From Pelagomonas calceolata (lineage: Eukaryota), in the NCBI GenBank assembly GCA_918797485.1, contig CAKKNE010000002.1, forward strand, positions 4,588,001-4,652,000: a stretch of DNA of 64,000 nucleotides, in the 5' to 3' direction. Position 1 is the stretch's first letter. Each line of letters starts with the position of its first letter. Positions 16,501 to 58,974 of the stretch are shown one piece after another. The position numbers and the translations under genes are program-made. The notes below the pieces were generated by a model that searched no databases, was not told the DNA's origin, and saw nothing but the letters and a program-made list of their open reading frames with translations.

Positions 16501-18116
16501 TGGTACTGGCGACCTGGCTCAATTGGCCAAACGGTGCGCCGAGAAGCGCGAGATGGCTTCACAAGCGCATGCCGAAGCGCGAGCCTTCCGAGATGAAGCT
16601 TTGAAGTTTGCGGAGGCGCAGCGGTTAGCCGACGAGGAAGAACGTAGAAGGAAGGAGGAGGAAGAACGTCGACGTAGAGAAGAGGAGGCGCGTTTACGGA
16701 GAGAAGCGGAAGAGCGTAAACGTAAAGAAGAGGAAGCGAGGGTCGCGGCCGAGGCCGAACAACTTCGTAGGAAGGAGGAGGAGGCTAAGCAACAGCATGA
16801 GGCCCGCATCGCCGCCGCGAAGGACGCCGCTGCTGCTGAAGAATTAAGGAAGGCCGAGTTGATACGCGAAGCCCAAGCTAGAGAGAATGAAAGACAACTA
16901 AGGGTCAAGGCCGAGAAGCTGCGGCGGGCCAAGGAGAAGGCGGCCAACGACGCGAAGGCCGCGCAAGCGTTTGCCGCGTTCGATGTACCAAAAACGCGCC
17001 TGTCCGACGTCCAGCCGCCCACGCCCCAGAAGCTCACGACGCAGTTGTCGGGCGGGTTTTCGTCCCCAAAACCGCCGCCGCCGCCGGATGATGAAGATGA
17101 AGAATTTGTGGACGACGAGGCCGGTCCGTATCGCAGCGTCTTCATTGACCCGTACGCCATCGACGCGTCTCGCGACGATATCGATCGACACAGGCTACGA
17201 CCAGGACGACGACGACTTCATCGAAGAAGCCCTGAGCCCGTCGAAGAAAGTGAGTGCCGAGTGGGTCGTCCAACATTTACGACGGTTCAAGCGGTGGTAC
17301 GTGGTCGAGAGACTTGGTAGTGACGGGAACGTCTGCAAGTACGAGCCGCCTCCCCCGCCGCCCTTGGAGATTCTGAACCGGCCCCACCCGCCCCTACCGC
17401 CGAGACGAGAGGTCAACGCTCTCAGAGATATGGCTTTTAGAGGTGTCGACCTGTGCCCGGAAGATCCAGCACCTAGAGATAGACGGACTTGTTTATTGCA
17501 CTGCGTCGTGAAGCGGAAGAAGTCGACGTTAGGTTCAGCACAATTTGAGTTTTCCTTGTCTTGCTTGCCTGATGATACATTACTCACAGCTAAGTTGTCA
17601 GGCAAGCACTGGCAGCTGTTTGATGGAGACGCGACGTTACCCTACGGCCAGTTGCGGGACGCCATGTCCATGACGGCTAGGCCTGATTCGGAGATGGGTC
17701 TGTTCGGCCACCAGCGAGCGAACCGAGGTGGCGCTCCCAGGGAGATCGGCGTCGTCGTGGAACCACCTGTCTCTGATGCGGGCTTTCTGGAAAGCTTGGG
17801 AGGGGCCAAGAACCTACCCGGCGGCGCGTTGTTCGATCGGTTCTCGCGGCACGACCCGCGCTTGGTGGTCTGCATGCAGCGCGACCCCGTGAAGCGCAAC
17901 GGGAAGTACTCGCTGGACTTCCGGGGAAGAGGCAAGGTCGCGTCGGTCAAGAACTTCCAACTACAGGCCGCGGCGGACCCCGGGCGACGCTCCAAAAAGG
18001 CGGACATCGTCTTGCAGTTCGCCAAGGTGTCTGCCAATAGATTTCACTTGGACTTCGCGGCGCCGTTCACGCCGACGACGGCCTTCGCGCTGGCCGTGTC
18101 GACGTGCGTGACCTAG
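13559..18116 (+). CDS. Unconventional myosin with an Ala-rich coiled coil, an ER/K single-alpha-helix tract and a C-terminal Tubby domain; exons 13559-17123 and 17194-18116, about 1495 aa
   Basis: Motor motifs LVAVNP, SGESGAGKT, NHNSSRFG, YLLEKSRV, GILDIFGYE, INYANESLQ and FCRCIKP. Exon 2 has the Tubby C-terminal signature YSLDFRGRGKVASVKNFQL...VLQFAKVSANRFHLDFAAPFTPTTAFALAVS. The frames join exactly across a 70-nt intron. Confidence 0.85.
17124..17193 (+). mobile_element. Introner-type intron, 70 nt, GT-AG, phase 1
   Basis: gtccgtat-cgcagcgtc...tacgccatcgacgcg...cgacacag|gctacgac. It shares the 5' end cgcagcgtc and the core with intron 62763-62902. Confidence 0.82.
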
Positions 18117-18345
18117 GCGCTTCGATCTAATTTCATTACACATATCTCCCTCTAGGCAGCCCTCCCCCGCACAGCAGAGCGCGTAAAACAGGTTTTCATC
18201 TTGGAATTTTAGCTGAAAACCAAGACCACGCGCTCAGTCTGGCAAGCAAAACGGAGTGCGCTCGTAGGAACGGACGGACTTCGAGTCATAAGCATCTCAG
18301 CACATCAATCTCGCGACTGCTTGCTGATAAATTAAGCTTAACAAA

Positions 18346-18741
18346 ATGAACTCTGAAGCTGCTCCTCTGCGTGAGCCGCGGTCGCGCGAACAGCCACGGT
18401 CGCGCCGCGTACGCGCGGCGGCGCTAGCCCTCGTCCTGGGATCGCTCGGCCTGTGGGCGGTCGTTGCGACGCGCGCGGGGCCCCTCGCGGGCACACGGCC
18501 CGGCGTCGCCGTGGACATGAAGCAGGAAGAACGGACGTGCTGGATGGAATACCGAGCCAAGAGCGGGAACGGCTATAAGCTCAAGAAGAAGAAGATCGCG
18601 TGCGACTGCGGCGCTGGCGAAAGTGGCGGAGGCGGCACCGGTGGCGGAAGCGACCCACCAGTGCCACCAGTTGTCGACGATCGTCAGCTGCCCTACTTCG
18701 AGGACTTTGAGGAAGATCTCCAGCAGCCCTACGCTGATTGA
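18346..18741 (+). CDS. Small hypothetical single-pass membrane protein
   Basis: 131-aa ORF with aaaATG context, hydrophobic segment AAALALVLGSLGLWAVVAT, a Gly-rich linker and an acidic tail. Confidence 0.5.
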   Translation: MNSEAAPLREPRSREQPRSRRVRAAALALVLGSLGLWAVVATRAGPLAGTRPGVAVDMKQEERTCWMEYRAKSGNGYKLKKKKIACDCGAGESGGGGTGGGSDPPVPPVVDDRQLPYFEDFEEDLQQPYAD

Positions 18742-18831: not shown

Positions 18832-18839
18832 AAAAAAAA
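18832..18839 (-). terminator. RNA polymerase III terminator (T8) of the tRNA-Val gene
   Basis: Run of 8 A on the + strand (T8 on -), 8 nt downstream of the tRNA discriminator base. Confidence 0.7.
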
Positions 18840-18847
18840 GAGAGTCG

Positions 18848-18947
18848 TACTGGATGCCGGGTTCGAACCGGCGACCTACTGCGTGTAAAGCAGACGTGAT
18901 AACCACTACGTTGGAGCTTCGGAGAAAAAAAGCTTCACCAATCCAGC
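18848..18947 (-). tRNA. trnV-UAC: tRNA-Val(UAC) with a 27-nt non-canonical intron at position 12/13 (exon 1 18947-18936, intron 18935-18909, exon 2 18908-18848)
   Basis: The spliced 73-mer GCTGGAT TG GTG|TAGTGGTTATCAC G TCTGC TTTACAC GCAGT AGGTC GCCGG TTCGAAC CCGGC ATCCAGT A forms a full cloverleaf. Acceptor GCTGGAT/ATCCAGT, T-arm GCCGG/CCGGC, anticodon TAC at 18887-18885. Confidence 0.88.
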
Positions 18948-19164
18948 AGTTCCTCCAAGGGTGCAGCCATCGGGCGCACTCCTCGGTCAGAGCTGGCCGA
19001 TTTTTCGCTTATGAAAGCCCAAACCTGGGTTTTGTGCCGCCGCCGCGGCGCGTCACGGGTCCGTTTTTGCCTCCAGGCCGTCGCAGGCACACTGCCGGCA
19101 TTGTTTGCAACCGCTGCTCGCAGGTCTGCTGGTTGCGCGAGACATTTGAGGCCGGAGAGCCAGC

Positions 19165-20133
19165 ATGCTCTCCCTTGCAGCCAGGCGCACAAGTCGCCGC
19201 GCGGCGCCGATACTGCGACGAGCGCCGCTGACACGCCGCGCATCACCGCCGCGCGTGCATATACAAAAGCTCAGCACCACCGCACCACAAACAAAAAACG
19301 TAGCCCTGAGACTCGCCCTCGCGCCCTACGCCGCTTTATCATGCTTCCCACTGGCGAGCGGCGCCGCGGCACTCTACCACTCCATCAACGGCGACGAGGA
19401 CGCCGCGCGCGGCTGCGCCTTCTTCAGCTGGACCGGATGGTTGTCTTTACCAGCGACGATACCGATGTTCCTCGTGGCGGCGCCGTATACCTTACTCTGT
19501 GATCCCTACGAGCGGAGCCTCCCGGATAAGGTAGCCAAGGCCTGGGGCCGTTGTACCACAACACCCTTCTTCTCTACTCATGTAGAAGGGCTGGAAGCGT
19601 GCGAAAAACAACTCAACGGCCGACCGGCGGTCTTCGTGGCGAACCACCAGTCGTGGTTGGATATATATGCTTCGTTTTGGCTGGACTGGGACCGCGCCTT
19701 AAAAATCGTGTCCAAGGCATCTATTTTCCGGATTCCTCTGTGTGGGTGGGTCATGTCTCTGATCGGCCACGTGCCCTACGACCGGTCCAAGCCGGGCGGC
19801 CACGTCGTCGGCGCGTGCGAGAAGCTCGTCGAGAACGGCGCGAGCATCCTCTTCTTCCCGGAGGGGTCACGGTCCAAGGACGGCCGGCTCAAGCCGTTCA
19901 AGCCCGGCGCGTTCGTGGTCGCGGCGCGCGCTGGATGTGCTGTCGTGCCGGTCACCATAAAAAACACGGGATATTTGATGCCCGTCGGCGACGAATTCTA
20001 CGCCGGCGGGCGCCTACGGCGGGGCGACGTCGAAGTGGTCGTCCACGCGCCTTTGTATGCCGATCCTACGAAGGCGGACCCCGTCGCCGATCTGCAAGAG
20101 AGGGCGCGACAAGCGATCGCGTCGCGGCTCTGA
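19165..20133 (+). CDS. 1-acyl-sn-glycerol-3-phosphate acyltransferase (LPAAT/PlsC family) with a basic N-terminal transit-like peptide
   Basis: Acyltransferase blocks NHQSWLD, GHVPYDR, FFPEGSRS and FKPGAF...VVPVTI. Confidence 0.9.
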   Translation: MLSLAARRTSRRAAPILRRAPLTRRASPPRVHIQKLSTTAPQTKNVALRLALAPYAALSCFPLASGAAALYHSINGDEDAARGCAFFSWTGWLSLPATIPMFLVAAPYTLLCDPYERSLPDKVAKAWGRCTTTPFFSTHVEGLEACEKQLNGRPAVFVANHQSWLDIYASFWLDWDRALKIVSKASIFRIPLCGWVMSLIGHVPYDRSKPGGHVVGACEKLVENGASILFFPEGSRSKDGRLKPFKPGAFVVAARAGCAVVPVTIKNTGYLMPVGDEFYAGGRLRRGDVEVVVHAPLYADPTKADPVADLQERARQAIASRL

Positions 20134-42003: not shown

Positions 42004-43473
42004 TTATATTACTGTAGTCGCCCGCGCCCCGGCCAGGGGGTCTGACCTCTCTGTTTGCGCCTCGGAGCGCGCGCGCCGCGCCGCGATCGCGGCCTCGAAG
42101 GGCGATTGCGTCTTCTGGTCGACGTCTGCCGCGGGCGCGGCCTCGAAGGCAGCGAAGTCGTCGCCGTCGTCCGCGGCCGGCGTGGCATCGAAGGAAATGA
42201 GGCCCTCGTCTGCGTCCGCGGGCGCCGCATCGAGGGTCGTCTCAAGGTTCAGAATATCGGCCTCGATGGCGTCGAGCATCGCGGTGCCGGTCGTTGTGGG
42301 CCTATAGGGCTCGACGGCCGGCGGCGGCGGCGCCGGTTCTGCGGGCGGCGGCGCCCTGGACACCGAGCCGGACGACATGGTCACGACGCGGTGGCCTTGC
42401 GGCGTCGCCGTCTTCGTCGAGGCCGCCCGGCTCACTGGCGGGGGCGCCGCGTCGACCGCGTCAGGAATCGGCCGAATTGCGTCGACCGCCGGGGGCGGCG
42501 CGTCGACAACCGCGGCAGGAGTCTGCGCTGGCGACATGATCGGCGACACGGGCCTCGCAGCTTCCAGAGTGGGCGACACGGCCCGGGGCGGCGCGTCGTC
42601 GTCGCTGGCCTCAACGACGTCTTCGGTACTGGAGGCCCGCCGCACGGCCTCGGCGCGCACGGCCGCCACGAGCTCGTCGCTGGAGAGCTCGGCGACGGTG
42701 TCAAGCACCTTCGCGGTTACCTCGGGCGACGGCAGCGGCGACGTCGACGCCTGGCGCTCAAATTCCGGGGTTGTGAGCGGCAAACGCGTGGCATTCAGGG
42801 CCTTCTGCGCGTCGCCCGGCGACGTCTGGAAGCGGTAGCGGAACCCATCCTGCGCCGGCGTCGACACGAGCGCCGCGGGGCTCGCCGCTCTGGGAGTTGC
42901 GGCGTCGAGCCAGTCGGCGTAGCTCCGCAGCTTCAGGGCCAGCGCTATTTTATCCGCCGCGCTCAAGTCGGCCTTCGCGAGGCGCCCGAGCGCGACGTCG
43001 AGGTCGTCGACCGGGTTCGTCTCTTTGCCGAGTAACTTGTTCACGCCGTCGAGGAGCGAGCCACGGCGCTTCCGCGCGGACGCCGCCCGGGGCGATTGCG
43101 CCGGCGTCGACGCCACCGACGACTTGGGCAGCGACGCCGGCGACGCGCTCGTGCTCGCCGGCGGCGGCGGCGGCGTGGGCGCGGCGACGCGCGCCGGCAG
43201 GGGCGGCGGCGTCGCGTCGGCCGGTGGCGCTGGCGGCGGCGCCGGCGGCGGCGCCGGCGGCGTCGCCGGCGGCGGCGCCGTGACGACGATCGGTGCGACC
43301 TCCTTGGGCCGGAGGTGCGCCGGTACCGGCTTCTTGTGCCGGAGGGCGGACGCCGCGAACTTCATATCCTCGGAGGGCGGGGTGCCGAGCTTGAGCAGGT
43401 GCCCCGTCTTCAGGCACATCTCCATCATCTCGCCCGTGTTCGCGTCGCGCACGAGCATGCGCTCGTTGTTCAT
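42004..43473 (-). CDS. Pro/Ala-rich, largely disordered hypothetical protein
   Basis: Long ORF with GC3-biased codons from MNNERMLVRDANTGEMMEMC (ATG 43473), with poly-Pro tracts. Confidence 0.6.
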   Translation of the reverse strand: MNNERMLVRDANTGEMMEMCLKTGHLLKLGTPPSEDMKFAASALRHKKPVPAHLRPKEVAPIVVTAPPPATPPAPPPAPPPAPPADATPPPLPARVAAPTPPPPPASTSASPASLPKSSVASTPAQSPRAASARKRRGSLLDGVNKLLGKETNPVDDLDVALGRLAKADLSAADKIALALKLRSYADWLDAATPRAASPAALVSTPAQDGFRYRFQTSPGDAQKALNATRLPLTTPEFERQASTSPLPSPEVTAKVLDTVAELSSDELVAAVRAEAVRRASSTEDVVEASDDDAPPRAVSPTLEAARPVSPIMSPAQTPAAVVDAPPPAVDAIRPIPDAVDAAPPPVSRAASTKTATPQGHRVVTMSSGSVSRAPPPAEPAPPPPAVEPYRPTTTGTAMLDAIEADILNLETTLDAAPADADEGLISFDATPAADDGDDFAAFEAAPAADVDQKTQSPFEAAIAARRARSEAQTERSDPLAGARATTVI

Positions 43474-53396: not shown

Positions 53397-54567
53397 ATTT
53401 ACGGATCCGGCAGGAGCCCCGCGAGCCACGCAGCTGCGAATATTAATGCCACGAATAGGAGTACGTGTTGCCCGGTGACCTCAAATTGCGGTCCATCGCC
53501 AGAGTGGCCTCTGTGGTGTCGCTTGCGGAGAGGCTTTTTGTATTTTGGCTCTGCACTTTTATTCCCTCTTATTAATGCCATCGTTAATCTATACCGGAAC
53601 TATGGCAGCAAAAAACAGATACAAATGCGGGAATACGCTAGCTCGACATCGTCGATACGGCGCAAATTGCCTGGAAAACCCGTTTTTATGGAATTGATAT
53701 AGGTATCTCTGGCTTTTTTTTCGCGGTTTTGAGCCAACGCGGGAGGCGTTCGGGCCCCGTGGGTGCGCACACACGCGTCGGCGTACTGCGCAGAAACGTG
53801 CCACACGGGGCACCGCCACGACACAAGCGCGAGACTACAAACAAACAAAACCCACGCCCCACAAGCGTCGAGCAGCAGCCCAGGGGCGCGCGCACAGCCT
53901 ACGGTGAGGGGCGCGGCCTCTGGAGGACACTAGTGCCGCGCGCGTGGGGCACATGTACGGAAAGGTCTCGCACTCGCCGTCACTTTTCCGGGGACGGCTG
54001 TGTGCAACGCGAGGCGCGCGGGGACAGCTTTGCACGGTTTTTTTGTCGCGGCACCCAAGCTGGCTTTGTAATTGGCAACACCCCAGGTATAAGGCGAAAA
54101 CCACCTTAAGGAGTCCAAACAGACGCTTGACAGGCGCTCGAGCAGCGTCTGTAACACGGTGGAGCCGTCCCCGTAGCTTTCTAGGAGCGTCTGAGACGCC
54201 TACAAGCCAGGAGCGGCCTGAAACAGGCGGACACAGCTGTGCTCGGGTTGTGCTGCCAAAGGGCGCCGCATTTGGCCGCCGCGCGCCCAAGATACGCACT
54301 CGGGACCGGTTCCAGTGCCAAGGGCTTTCAAGAACACATACTTTGCTAAGGTTCGGAGCAGCGCTGCGATCGCTGCGGCAGTATATTCACCGCCTGAGCG
54401 ATTTGACAGGAAAGACACCCAAGCGCGGGATATACCAAAAAACGATAGCGCAGACCCGCAGATCCGCCGCAAAAGTCGCACGGCTCACCGAACAAGCTGC
54501 TGCGCGAATCTCCCGCGCATTTGAGCCCAGCGCGGCCGCGTCGGAAATCCGCGCCGTTCGAACGATT

Positions 54568-57500
54568 ATGGCGTCCGACGACGAGGCCGCGCCGGCCGCC
54601 TTCGACGACGAGGACGCCACACGGCTGGCCAAGAAAATGAAGGTCGATGAACTCCGCGCCGCCCTCGAGGCGGCGGGCGCGGACACCGAGGGTACGAAGC
54701 CGGCGCTCGTCGAGCGATTGGTCGCCGCGCAGCGCGCCGCGGCCTCGCCACAACCGATGGAGGAGGACAGCGACGCTGACGCGCCGATGGAGGCCCGCAA
54801 CGGCCACGACAGCGGCGACGAGGCCGAGGAGGACGAGGCCGAGCCGGCGGCGTTCGACGAGGAGGAAGCCACGCGGCGGGCCAAGAAAATGAAGGTCGAG
54901 GAGCTCCGCGCGGCGCTCGAGGCCGCGGGCGAGGACACGGAGGGTACGAAGCCCGTGCTCGTCGAGCGCGCGGTCGCCGCGGCGCGCGCCGCGGCCGAGG
55001 AGGAGAACTCCGGCGAGTACGGCGAAGAAGGCTACGACAGCGACGAGGGCTACCCCGTCGAGGAGGGCGACGATATCGACGTCGGCGCCAGGCTGCTCGG
55101 CAAATTCAGTGGAGACGGCCGGTACTACGATTGTGTGGTAGAAGAGGTGACGGAGACGGGCTACCAGGTCTTGTTCACGGAGTACGGCGACAGCGAAGAA
55201 TTATCAAGGGAGCGCCTGCGCTACTACGCCGCCGAGGACGACTCTTGCGCCGGCGACGAGGAGGGCTACTTCGTCGAGGAAGTTGTTGAAGGCGCCGAGC
55301 TGCTCGGCCGGAAGTCTGATGATGGCCAGTACCACAACGTTATGGTCGAAGAGGTGACGGAGGCGGGCTGCAAGGTTTTATTCACAGAATTCGGCGACGA
55401 CGAGGAGAACCGCGCGGAACTCCCTCTGGAAAATCTGCGCTACCCTTACGCCGCCGAGGAGGAGGAAGAGGAGGGCTACGACGCGGAGGACGGCTACTAC
55501 GACGATAGTAACGACGAGGCCATCGCCGTGGGCGCGGAGCTGAGCGGCAAGTTCAGCGGAGACGGCCTCTACTACGACGTGGTCGTCGAGGAGGTTACTG
55601 AGAATGGCTACCAGGTCCTGTTCCCGGGGGGCCCGATCCGCGAGGTTGTTCCAAGGGAGCAACTGCGGCCGCGTCCTACTGAAAACGACGAGTTCCGCTA
55701 TTATGACGAGGAGGGGGGTTATTATGATGAACAAGGTCATTACTACGACGCCGAGGGGAACCAGTACGTCGTAACCGAGGAGGACGGAGCCGAGGAGGAC
55801 GACGGCGACGAGGTGGGCTATTTTATCCAGGAGGGTCAAGAGATCGCGGTCGGCAATGTGCTGCTCGGCAAGAAGTCTGATGATGGCCAATACCACAATG
55901 TTATTGTAGAAGAGGTGACGGAGTCGGGCTACAAGGTCCTGTTTACGGAGCACGAGGGCGAAGACGGCGACCGCGAGGAACTGCCGCGCGAGCACCTGCG
56001 CTACTACTACGAGGAGGACTACGCCGACGACGAGCCGGGCTACCCCGTTGAGGAGGGCCACGACATCGCGGTCGGAAATAACCTGCTCGGCAGAAGTGAC
56101 GGCCGGTACTACGACGTTATTGTCGAAGAGGTGACCGAGACGGGCTACAAGGTTTTATTCACGGCAACCGGCGACCGAGAGGAACTCCCACGGGAGCGCC
56201 TGCGCTTCTACGACGGCGACGAGGAGGGCTACTTCGTCGAGGAGGGTGCGGCCATCGCGGTCGGCGCCGAGCTGCTCGGCCGGAAGTCTGATGATGGCCA
56301 GTACTGCAATTGTGTGGTAGAAGAGGTGACGGAGACGGGCTGCAAGGTCTTGTTCACGGCGTACGACGATGGCGAGGGGAACCGCGCGGAACTCCCGCGG
56401 GAGCACCTGCGCATAGCTTACCCCTACGAGGAGGGCGACGACGACGACGACGAGGAGGAGGAGGGCGACGAGGAGGGTTACTTCGTCGCGGAGGAGGGCA
56501 TACCGGTCGGAGCCGAGCTGCTCGGCAGAAAAAGTGACGACGGCCAGTACTACGACGTCGTCATCGAAGAGGTGACGGAGACCGGCTACAGGGTGCTCTT
56601 TACGGCGTACGAGGGTGAAGACGGCGACCGCGAGGAACTCCCGATCGAGCACCTGCGCTACTATTATCCTGATGAGGAGGGCGACGGCGACGACGACGAC
56701 GAGGAGGGCGACGGCGACGAGGAGGGCTTGTTCGTCGAGGAGGACTGCGACGACATCGCGGTCGGCGCCGAGCTGCTCGGCAGATGGAGTGAGGACGGCG
56801 AGTACTACGACGTCGTCGTCGAAGAGGTGACGGAGACCGGCTACAGGGTACTCTTCACCGCGTACGAGGGTGAAGACGGCGACCGCGAGGAACTCCCGAT
56901 CGAGCACTTGCGCTATTATTACCCCGACGAGGAGGGCGACGACGACGAGGGCGAGGAGGAGGGCGCCGACGAGGACGCGGCGCCGAGCGAGGACGGCCTG
57001 GCCGTCGGCGACGACGAGGGGCCCACGTTCCGCGTCGGCGACGCCGTCGTCGACGGCAAGACGGGCGAGGTCGGCGAGGTCGTCGGCAAGGTGCCGGGCT
57101 GGTGGAAGATCCGGATCCCGAGCTCCGCCCAGGTCCAGTCGCGGCGGGAGAAGGACCTCACGGCCGCGGGCGAGGGCGACGAGGGCTCTGACGATATCAA
57201 CGTCGGCGCCGAGTTGTTGGGGAGATGGAGCGAAGACGGCGAGTACTACGACTGCGTCGTCGAAGAGGTGACGGAGACTGGATATCTAGTTTTGTTCACG
57301 GAGTACGGCGACCGCGAGGAACTCCAGATTGATGATTTGCGGTGGTATGACGACGAGGACGAGGAGGAGGATGGCTACGGTACTGATGATTGCTACTCCA
57401 TCGAGTCGAGTGACGACATAGACGTAGGCGCCGAGCTGCTCGGTAAGTACAGTGACGGCCTCTACTACGATTGTGTGGTCGAAGAGGTGACGGAGAATGG

Positions 57501-58974
57501 ATACATTGTGCTCTTTACCGAGTATGATGAAAGAGAAGAATTAGCAAGGGAGGACCTGCGCTGGTATGAAGACGAAGACGAGGAGGAGTATGAGGACGAG
57601 GTAGCATCGTACGAGGAAGAAAAGCCCCCCGAGCGCGGCTCGCGGCCCGGCGAGGTCGTCCAGGAAGCTCCAGAGCCGAAGGAGGCGGGCGACGGCGACG
57701 GGGAAGAGCCAGAACATAAAGAGGCGAAGTGGGGGGGACCCTTGACCGAGGGCGGCCACGACGATCCTCGCGCCGATACCACACCTAGAGATGATTATGG
57801 GCGACGGCTGAAAGGTTCGAGGCTGCTGGAGTACATGGACCAGGGGCCGCTTGGGGCCGATGCGGTCTACTATAGGTATAGGCGGGGTCCTCCTGACGAG
57901 GACGTCGAGGAACTGGAAGGTGATGCGGTGAATGAGGCTCTACGAATACCGGCCTGGCCGCCGGCTCCACTACTACCACTGTCAAATGAGGAGTATAACC
58001 AGCGGCCCGAACAACCGTCATCAGAATACGAGAATTGTGCTGGCGACTTTGCGGAGGGTGATGAGGATAGGACCGTGGAGTTGTGGGACCCTTCTGATGA
58101 TAAGAAGCGCAAGAGTCGTGTGGAGAGGGAATTACCCAGTATTATGCCAAATGAGGAGGGTCCTCGGGGCTCGAGGAAAGACGACGACGCCGTCTATGCA
58201 GCCGACCGGGTAGAAAAGGAAGCGACTCAGGATCCGAAGGTGCTTGCGTTGAGACGGTTGCGGGTCGGCCAACGCGTCGATTACCGGGACCCCGTCGGCG
58301 GGTGGGGCCATTCTGGAGGCGTCATCGTTGGGGAAGTCGGTCGTACTACGTGGGACGTGGAACTCGATCGCGGCGGCATCCTGCGAGATGTCGATGAGCG
58401 AGACCTCAAGAAACTCAACAAGAAGCAACAGGGTATCTTGGAGAACGCGTGGGATCGGGGACCGACGGATATGTGCGCATCGACGGCGTTTTTGCTGGGG
58501 CAGCACGATCATAATAGAGCATCAGTACCAGTACCTGAGCGGTTGCGGTGCTTTGCGTGCGAGGGGTGTCTGGCGACGCCGTGCGGGGAATGCGCGCCTT
58601 GTAAAGACGATCGCGCGAACGGCGGTCCGGGAAAACTTCGACGAGTGTGTGTCCGGTGTCGGTGCAAGGAAGCCAGCGAGGTCGCGGCGTCGGCGCTGGC
58701 GCGTGCCGGGAGGTATCGGCAGGCGCCGCAAGCCCCGCAGATCCTCGAGCAGCTCGAGGACTACCTGCAAAACTGCGGCGGTGCCGCGGGTAGTGCCGAT
58801 GGGTGGACCATTGATGTGGTCGAACGCAAGGGCGGCGAGACGGCAGGCGGCCACGACGTCTACTACTTCCCGCCCGACGGCGGCAAGCGGTGCCGGAGTC
58901 GCGCTGAAGTGGCTCGTGCCTTGGGGCTGCAGCCGGCGAAAGGGAAAAAATATTCTAGCAAATCTAAGAAATAG
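54568..58974 (+). CDS. Multidomain chromatin protein: 2x SAP, 10x SMN-type Tudor repeats in acidic linkers, 2 divergent SH3/Tudor-like folds, a CXXC zinc finger and a C-terminal MBD
   Basis: SAP KKMKVDELRAALEAAGADTEGTKPALVERL (x2). Tudor VGAELLGRWSEDGEYYDCVVEEVTETGYLVLFTEYGDREEL. CXXC RCFACEGCLATPCGECAPCKDDRANGGPGKLRRVCVRCRC. MBD DGWTIDVVERKGGETAGGHDVYYFPPDGGKRCRSRAEVARAL. Confidence 0.85.
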   Translation: MASDDEAAPAAFDDEDATRLAKKMKVDELRAALEAAGADTEGTKPALVERLVAAQRAAASPQPMEEDSDADAPMEARNGHDSGDEAEEDEAEPAAFDEEEATRRAKKMKVEELRAALEAAGEDTEGTKPVLVERAVAAARAAAEEENSGEYGEEGYDSDEGYPVEEGDDIDVGARLLGKFSGDGRYYDCVVEEVTETGYQVLFTEYGDSEELSRERLRYYAAEDDSCAGDEEGYFVEEVVEGAELLGRKSDDGQYHNVMVEEVTEAGCKVLFTEFGDDEENRAELPLENLRYPYAAEEEEEEGYDAEDGYYDDSNDEAIAVGAELSGKFSGDGLYYDVVVEEVTENGYQVLFPGGPIREVVPREQLRPRPTENDEFRYYDEEGGYYDEQGHYYDAEGNQYVVTEEDGAEEDDGDEVGYFIQEGQEIAVGNVLLGKKSDDGQYHNVIVEEVTESGYKVLFTEHEGEDGDREELPREHLRYYYEEDYADDEPGYPVEEGHDIAVGNNLLGRSDGRYYDVIVEEVTETGYKVLFTATGDREELPRERLRFYDGDEEGYFVEEGAAIAVGAELLGRKSDDGQYCNCVVEEVTETGCKVLFTAYDDGEGNRAELPREHLRIAYPYEEGDDDDDEEEEGDEEGYFVAEEGIPVGAELLGRKSDDGQYYDVVIEEVTETGYRVLFTAYEGEDGDREELPIEHLRYYYPDEEGDGDDDDEEGDGDEEGLFVEEDCDDIAVGAELLGRWSEDGEYYDVVVEEVTETGYRVLFTAYEGEDGDREELPIEHLRYYYPDEEGDDDEGEEEGADEDAAPSEDGLAVGDDEGPTFRVGDAVVDGKTGEVGEVVGKVPGWWKIRIPSSAQVQSRREKDLTAAGEGDEGSDDINVGAELLGRWSEDGEYYDCVVEEVTETGYLVLFTEYGDREELQIDDLRWYDDEDEEEDGYGTDDCYSIESSDDIDVGAELLGKYSDGLYYDCVVEEVTENGYIVLFTEYDEREELAREDLRWYEDEDEEEYEDEVASYEEEKPPERGSRPGEVVQEAPEPKEAGDGDGEEPEHKEAKWGGPLTEGGHDDPRADTTPRDDYGRRLKGSRLLEYMDQGPLGADAVYYRYRRGPPDEDVEELEGDAVNEALRIPAWPPAPLLPLSNEEYNQRPEQPSSEYENCAGDFAEGDEDRTVELWDPSDDKKRKSRVERELPSIMPNEEGPRGSRKDDDAVYAADRVEKEATQDPKVLALRRLRVGQRVDYRDPVGGWGHSGGVIVGEVGRTTWDVELDRGGILRDVDERDLKKLNKKQQGILENAWDRGPTDMCASTAFLLGQHDHNRASVPVPERLRCFACEGCLATPCGECAPCKDDRANGGPGKLRRVCVRCRCKEASEVAASALARAGRYRQAPQAPQILEQLEDYLQNCGGAAGSADGWTIDVVERKGGETAGGHDVYYFPPDGGKRCRSRAEVARALGLQPAKGKKYSSKSKK
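55075..57562 (+). repeat. Intragenic tandem array of 10 Tudor-coding repeats
   Basis: Recurring DNA ctgctcggc...gacggc...tactacga...gaagaggtgacggag...ttcacgg. Units 7 and 8 (about 56506-56660 and 56761-56910) are nearly identical. Confidence 0.85.

Follow-up and report, generated by a model that had tools for sequence, protein, structure and literature searches.

A likely non-canonical intron in the D-stem of a nuclear tRNA-Val(UAC) gene from a pelagophyte

The tRNA-Val(UAC) locus and its surroundings

The window, by which we mean the whole 64,000-nt stretch of DNA analyzed here, is a gene-dense eukaryotic stretch with a GC content of ~60%. The proteasome subunit that it encodes shares 68% identity with a cluster that includes Aureococcus anophagefferens, versus 41% or less with the other named matches, and it has many closer unnamed relatives too; a pelagophyte origin is accordingly likely. 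On the minus strand, from 18947 to 18848, lies a tRNA-Val(UAC) gene in which a 27-nt insert separates exons of 12 and 61 nt (Table 1). On one side its neighbors are a small reading frame and a myosin-Tub gene, and on the other an acyltransferase gene whose RNA reads start near 19035. In its unspliced form the gene is easily overlooked: ARAGORN reports no tRNA gene in the unspliced 64,000-nt window, and Rfam returns a partial tRNA match to the locus at 28.4 bits, just below the cut-off of 29. Excising the insert in silico yields a 73-nt tRNA-Val(UAC) cloverleaf that ARAGORN does call and in which the invariant bases are present (U8, A14, G15, U33, A37, TTC at 54-56, A58, and A73). Three of its stem pairs are imperfect, namely the G1-U72 wobble and the mismatches 13-22 and 27-43. 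The canonical intron site at 37/38 is unoccupied and the anticodon loop unbroken, the insert lying instead at 12/13. A tRNA-Val split in this manner had been proposed by the first-pass annotation, and both the minus-strand letters and the 73-nt cloverleaf that it gave hold up, albeit with the three imperfect pairs. As ten long reading frames contain 78 GUA codons among 675 for Val, a UAC-reading tRNA is needed.

Table 1. Features of the tRNA-Val(UAC) locus in window coordinates. L015, L019, and L066 designate the copies of the locus in relatives; with the window they make up the four copies.
Feature	Position	Strand	Remarks
Leader region resembling L066 exon 1 plus the first 16 intron bases	18948..18975 (28 nt)	-	19/28 match
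tRNA-Val exon 1 (tRNA positions 1-12)	18936..18947	-	12/12 identical in L015 and L066, 10/12 in L019
Intron at 12/13, 27 nt, with predicted HBh′ motif	18909..18935	-	27/27 in L015, 26/27 in L019; L066 has instead a 25-nt sequence with the same geometry
Helix H, 5′ strand (tRNA positions 7-10)	18938..18941	-	4/4 Watson-Crick in the window, L015, and L066; 3/4 in L019
Inner helix h′	18915..18934 (arms 18934-18930 and 18919-18915, 10-nt loop)	-	pair probabilities 0.90-0.95
T7 run in the intron, possible Pol III terminator	18925..18931	-	absent from the L066 intron
Helix H, 3′ strand (intron bases 22-25)	18911..18914	-	retained in all four copies despite the differing L066 core
tRNA-Val exon 2 (positions 13-73)	18848..18908	-	61/61 identical in L015, L019, and L066
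Anticodon UAC	~18887-18885	-	in exon 2
B box	18869-18859	-	in exon 2
T8 run, likely Pol III terminator	18832..18839	-	present in all four copies

The neighborhood itself shows further variation among relatives. The distance from the tRNA end to the myosin-Tub stop is 731 nt in the window versus 150 nt in L066, from which ~570-580 nt lying between the two (18156-18730) are missing. The two copies of an 8-nt direct repeat (18156-18163 and 18723-18730), of which L066 has just one, mark the borders of this extra segment, within which, on the plus strand at 18346-18741, lies a 131-aa reading frame with a hydrophobic stretch; the segment represents either an insertion next to the tRNA or a deletion in L066. 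Between the myosin and Tub reading frames, the frame changes at 17120-17190, where a short intron-like stretch with a terminal AG is located; its L066 version is ~80 nt longer with the same ends. This stretch is probably a conventional spliceosomal intron within a single myosin-Tub gene. Elsewhere in the window, 53908-58971 carries a 1,688-aa reading frame with SAP, Tudor-like, CXXC, and MBD domain matches.

Position and geometry of the splice motif

ARAGORN by itself cannot locate the junction, as many cut choices pass, and the product is identical whether the cut is placed at 11/12 or at 12/13. We set the junction at 12/13 on two grounds. The first is an uninterrupted tRNA-Val(AAC) that carries the same 12-nt 5′ part (L013 and L035, described below). 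The second is the geometry of the motif: a cut at 12/13 gives a central helix H of 4 bp and an inner helix h′ of 5 bp, as compared to 0 and 0 for 11/12, and 0 and 1 for 13/14. With the junction so placed, the predicted cuts fall after the second base of each bulge, flanking the 4-bp central helix. All four copies possess 5 bp in h′, where the relaxed HBh′ form requires at least 2 bp, and all four have no outer exon-exon helix (h = 0), which belongs to the strict hBHBh′ form. The splice motif is thus a relaxed HBh′ and not a full hBHBh′: the BHB described at first pass stands as regards the 4-bp H, the 5-bp h′, and the bulge cuts at 12/13, and falls short in the absent outer helix. The base common to the acceptor stem and H, U7, has a pair probability of 0.10, as compared to ~0.5 for the other three H pairs.

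How often would such geometry arise by chance? None of 1,000,000 shuffles of the window insert combined H = 4 with an h′ of at least 5 Watson-Crick pairs, and 6,373 of 1,000,000 gave the relaxed motif; for the L066 insert, 2 of 1,000,000 shuffles matched its geometry. When every motif in the window was spliced in silico (11,889 motifs), three tRNA calls resulted, this tRNA-Val included, and the same scan returned no tRNA call on three Markov control windows. Two overlapping Ala(GGC) calls of 85-93 nt near 43230 were judged false (GC-rich repeat). The feature is real and well beyond chance.

Copies of the locus in relatives

A metagenome scan with a motif built from the T-arm and acceptor end produced 68 matches, three of which are this locus in relatives (L015, L019, and L066) and two tRNA-Val(AAC) genes; the remaining 63, prokaryote-type tRNAs or chance matches, were dropped. 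All three relatives carry an insert at 12/13, and no intron-free copy with this 3′ end was found in this lineage among the 68 matches. Elsewhere, motif scans returned nothing from prokaryote genomes and, from viral contigs, nothing and then one unrelated tRNA, while a myosin-based scan for further loci brought up two irrelevant bacterial loci. The two tRNA-Val(AAC) genes, L013:2464-2573 and L035:3880-3989, are mutually 99.99% identical and come from another eukaryote. They share the first 12 bases of the window gene, have no insert at 12/13, and harbor a normal 37/38 intron. Their acceptor stem is the same as that of the tRNA-Val(UAC), including G1-U72, and they lie beside SacI, exonuclease, and MYST genes.

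The most informative comparison is with L066. This locus is syntenic, with the same myosin-Tub gene at 93% amino-acid identity, and 326 of 579 fourfold sites of the myosin are identical (56%), or ~0.66 substitutions per site. Against this divergence, the exons are identical to those of the window at 73 of 73 bases, for which the probability by chance is 8e-8 at 80% and 5e-4 at 90% background identity, the sequence just downstream of the tRNA in L066 being also fairly conserved (27/30). The L066 intron, by contrast, is 25 nt long with a different core and a purine-rich loop, and still retains H (4/4), both bulges, and h′ (5/5). Three of the five h′ pairs are changed on both sides and none is broken; the rough probability that the six changes would fall so by chance is 0.002. 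These compensatory changes point to selection on the splice motif, acting on fold and not sequence, in what is a single independent comparison. They are what the first-pass annotation had suggested looking for in related strains. Its further expectation, that orthologues conserve H, is borne out in L015 and L066 and fails in L019, where the helix is broken. The L066 contig starts exactly at tRNA position 1, leaving its leader invisible, and this assembly break may mean that variants differ just upstream.

The two other copies are closer to the window. L015 is identical across the gene (100/100), with flanks at ~87-94%. In L019, a 6-nt stretch holds three changes (positions 8 and 12, and intron base 1) that break U8, the 12-23 pair, and H (H pair probability of 0.01 or less); either the contig is misassembled here or the copy is dead. 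Across the window, L015, and L019 the identity is patchy and block-like, and L019 is mosaic, so that the intron common to the three counts as weak evidence of selection. The mosaicism of L019 (1-1162) is visible in the Tub stop, which is nearer to L066 (96/105 versus 86/103), and across the extra segment and the tRNA, where L019 is window-like at up to 118/120; either introgression or a chimeric assembly accounts for it.

Transcription signals and RNA reads

The B box is intact, and in the unspliced gene the first intron bases substitute for positions 13-15, so that the A box still agrees with the consensus at 6 of its 7 informative positions, but a T7 run lies inside the intron. Runs of T7 or longer are scarce, only 11 occurring in the window on both strands together. 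Primary Pol III terminators in yeast most commonly consist of 6 or 7 Ts, and the first T run ends transcription in vivo with only partial efficiency, according to the available part of one study (10.1101/2021.08.27.457903). Two of the seven Ts pair within the perfect h′ helix, which implies that the motif persisted, or was rebuilt, in the presence of the T run and favors leaky read-through rather than a dead allele. The first-pass annotation, in claiming a working tRNA-Val(UAC), had left this T7 run unweighed; what supports its claim is that the orthologue keeps the motif.

Both ends of the gene offer possible sources for the intron cores. The T7 run and the next 6 nt match the trailer of the gene itself at 12 of 13 bases, a score attained by 2 of 6,366 tiles and by none of the 59 tiles with a run of T6 or longer, and reached in 5% of trials when the trailer is shuffled with its T8 fixed. 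On the other side, the likeness of the 28-nt leader region to L066 was equaled by 7 of 20,000 shuffles and, among 1,422 window tiles, by this one tile, and the likeness of the L066 intron core alone to the window leader is expected by chance at ~1%. Both likenesses were noticed post hoc and serve as leads only. They suggest that intron cores might be refreshed by local copying of the flanks. An origin of the T run by inversion of the L066 loop was also considered and rejected, as its score is at background.

No TATA-like sequence was seen in the 75 nt upstream of the tRNA-Val gene, Rfam gave sub-threshold noise only on the upstream region, and the folding of the upstream 78 nt (z = -2.1 and -1.6) is not convincing. 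The same 75 nt (18948-19022) are identical to the window at 74/75 positions in L015 and 70/75 in L019, which exceeds the flank beyond, and they directly precede the divergent acyltransferase transcript start (~19035); they may constitute a shared promoter region.

RNA reads were drawn from three poly(A) runs of one sample, ~6% of each, mapped on 18911-19400. They number 110 on the neighboring gene and zero on 18911-19029, in 3/3 runs, so that this part of the tRNA gene does not lie inside a detected mRNA. Neither precursor nor spliced tRNA appears among the poly(A) reads on 18911-19400, such libraries losing tRNA and the 3′ junction being uncovered.

Interpretation and alternatives

Considering these observations together, we regard it as probable that the locus is a nuclear tRNA-Val(UAC) gene with an intron at 12/13, excised by the tRNA-splicing endonuclease, which would read the local HBh′ fold and not the distance from the tRNA body. 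The insert would then likely be a functional non-canonical tRNA intron. This reading is supported by the unique 12/13 geometry, the shuffles, the conservation in L066, and the inserts in 3/3 relatives. The lack of mRNA over 18911-19029, the need to read GUA, and the precedent of Cyanidioschyzon merolae (below) are also counted for it, and the T7 run in the intron, the damage in L019, and the reliance on a single informative orthologue against it.

The sequence of events that we envisage is as follows. Pol III would transcribe the gene, with enough polymerases passing the intronic T7 to reach the T8. In the precursor, positions 7-10 would pair with intron bases 22-25 and the 5-bp inner helix would form, generating a 3-nt bulge and an open 3′ site as U7 switches from the acceptor stem to H. 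At both sites the endonuclease would then cleave behind the second base, leaving the exons to be joined by a tRNA ligase. The D-arm would fold only afterwards, yielding a tRNA that reads GUA codons.

Four other explanations have to be weighed. First, the ancestral gene, like that of L066, may have been spliced, with the window allele dead or dying through the copying of a terminator into its intron and another gene supplying the tRNA-Val(UAC). The 12-of-13 match of the intronic T7 to the trailer, rare among tiles, is what this scenario would predict, and L019 shows the same intron in a gene damaged at U8, G12, and H. The near-identity blocks and mosaicism could moreover explain why decay is absent. 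Conversely, the T8-fixed shuffles make the trailer match far less striking, the pairing of two of the seven Ts in a perfect h′ indicates a motif kept or rebuilt, L015 is unchanged across the gene while its flanks differ, and the exons have stayed identical to those of L066 at a fourfold-site divergence of ~0.66. We therefore hold a dead window allele to be unlikely, albeit the most serious of the four.

Second, the insert may never have been an intron at all, in which case the locus would be a pseudogene broken by insertion or would yield a tRNA-like RNA that stays unspliced, and the motif would have come about incidentally through hairpin-forming mutation. Template switching can indeed perfect a hairpin without selection, and taken by itself the hairpin of the insert shows no unusual stability (z = -0.8 and 0.1). 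The two stem mismatches of the mature form agree with such an origin, as does the lack of spliced RNA in the poly(A) reads, which come from a library type that loses tRNA. According to the available text of one review, D- or T-arm insertions are treated as pseudogenes in most eukaryotes (PMC4090602). Yet the exact cut geometry, exon pairing included, arises from each of two unrelated insert cores, and a pseudogene would not retain all of its 73 exon bases, which renders this explanation improbable, and more so than a dead allele.

Third, the T7 run could end a short 5′ piece that is then trans-spliced to a separately started 3′ piece, in the manner of archaeal split tRNAs. The T run does begin in the 5′ arm of h′, such that a truncated transcript would retain all five pairing bases. 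However, no second start is evident, a Pol III start in the loop would probably be too near the split A box, L066 is without the T run, and split tRNAs are tabulated for archaea only in the available text of one review (PMC4033280). We give trans-splicing very little credence.

Lastly, pelagophytes are rich in introner introns and the insert contains short inverted repeats, but an overlapping mRNA with a spliceosomal or introner intron here, or a footprint left by a transposon, can practically be set aside, for GT/GC-AG ends are missing from the insert on both strands and in both registers, no mRNA reads cover 18911-19029, and its ends pair with the exon with no target-site duplication.

Beyond the preferred reading of a fold-guided D-stem intron in this one gene, a broader picture may be sketched, which we put forward tentatively and consider doubtful as a whole. 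In it, pelagophytes would have an archaeal-style, position-independent endonuclease and part of their tRNA set hidden behind BHB introns, two points that the first-pass annotation had also inferred; the intron cores would be copied from the flanks (a trailer-like core in the lineage of the window, a leader-like one in L066), and the intronic terminator would act as an attenuator for the rare GUA.

Comparison with known systems

Precedents for such introns exist in other algae. The nuclear tRNA genes of Cyanidioschyzon merolae contain 42 introns in 27 of 43 genes, five of them in the D-stem, and two of these five have been shown to be spliced by RT-PCR (Soma et al. 2013, PMC3728597, available text). 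The present case resembles them, as far as that text describes them, in being a short D-stem intron in a nuclear tRNA gene that interrupts the A box, in having a length within the range of 11-69 nt, and in its HBh′ form, which is among the motif types of C. merolae. It differs in belonging to a stramenopile rather than a red alga, in comprising one gene known from sequence as opposed to 27/43 with splicing shown, and in that no TATA-like sequence was seen within 75 nt, whereas C. merolae genes mostly have one upstream. Chondrus crispus, also a red alga, provides a second parallel: its nuclear tRNAs were likewise missed or called pseudogenes by standard scans, and splicing of its introns was shown by RT-PCR (PlantRNA 2.0, 10.1101/2021.12.21.473619). 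Unlike the insert described here, at 12/13 in the D-stem, its introns are fixed at the loop sites 20/21 and 58/59. Two heterokonts are included in PlantRNA 2.0, and its main text reports no such introns for either (10.1101/2021.12.21.473619).

The nucleomorph of Guillardia theta also has short introns in the D and T arms of eukaryotic tRNA genes, according to the available portions of PMC4090602 and PMC3978253; it is a relict red-algal nucleus, and many of its introns are without a defined BHB, in contrast to the host nuclear gene and clean motif found here. With the archaeal hBHBh′/HBh′ introns, as the available text of PMC4090602 presents them, the intron shares the 4-bp central helix, the 3-nt bulge, the relaxed HBh′ form, and position independence. 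What sets it apart is its setting in a eukaryotic Pol III gene with A and B boxes, a T-run terminator, and no encoded CCA. The 12/13 site is absent from the non-exhaustive list of archaeal example positions in the available part of that review (PMC4090602). Of the precedents named at first pass, Cyanidioschyzon and the nucleomorphs are borne out, and Chondrus crispus was missing from the list.

The BHB-type tRNA intron is therefore of a kind already described, and it is likely that the lineage is what is new, as we found no report for it. In its available text, a 2026 review confines the eukaryotic cases to nucleomorphs and red algae, and adds some green algae for permuted genes (PMC13578239). 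The terms Pelago- and Aureococcus have no match in the available contents of PMC13578239 (text and supplements), PMC3978253, PMC12168002, and PMC12530127; Aureococcus alone has none in those of PMC4090602 and occurs in one reference only in those of PMC8450103. Our search of the literature, GtRNAdb entries and bioRxiv supplements aside, turned up no such intron in pelagophytes or stramenopiles.

Implications

It is proposed in the available text of a 2023 review that an archaeal-like (alpha-beta)2 endonuclease able to splice non-canonical introns may exist in eukaryotes other than animals, fungi, and amoebae (PMC10485636). That text also has such genes escaping standard scans, and tRNAscan in its eukaryote mode considering canonical introns alone (PMC10485636). 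If the reading of the insert as a spliced intron is true, the tRNA annotations of pelagophytes are incomplete, and the locus offers a substrate for direct tests in a group that is abundant in the sea. The intronic T7 run raises a separate question, on the rules of Pol III termination in these algae. A case in the host nucleus of a stramenopile would, if true, extend the trait to the SAR supergroup.
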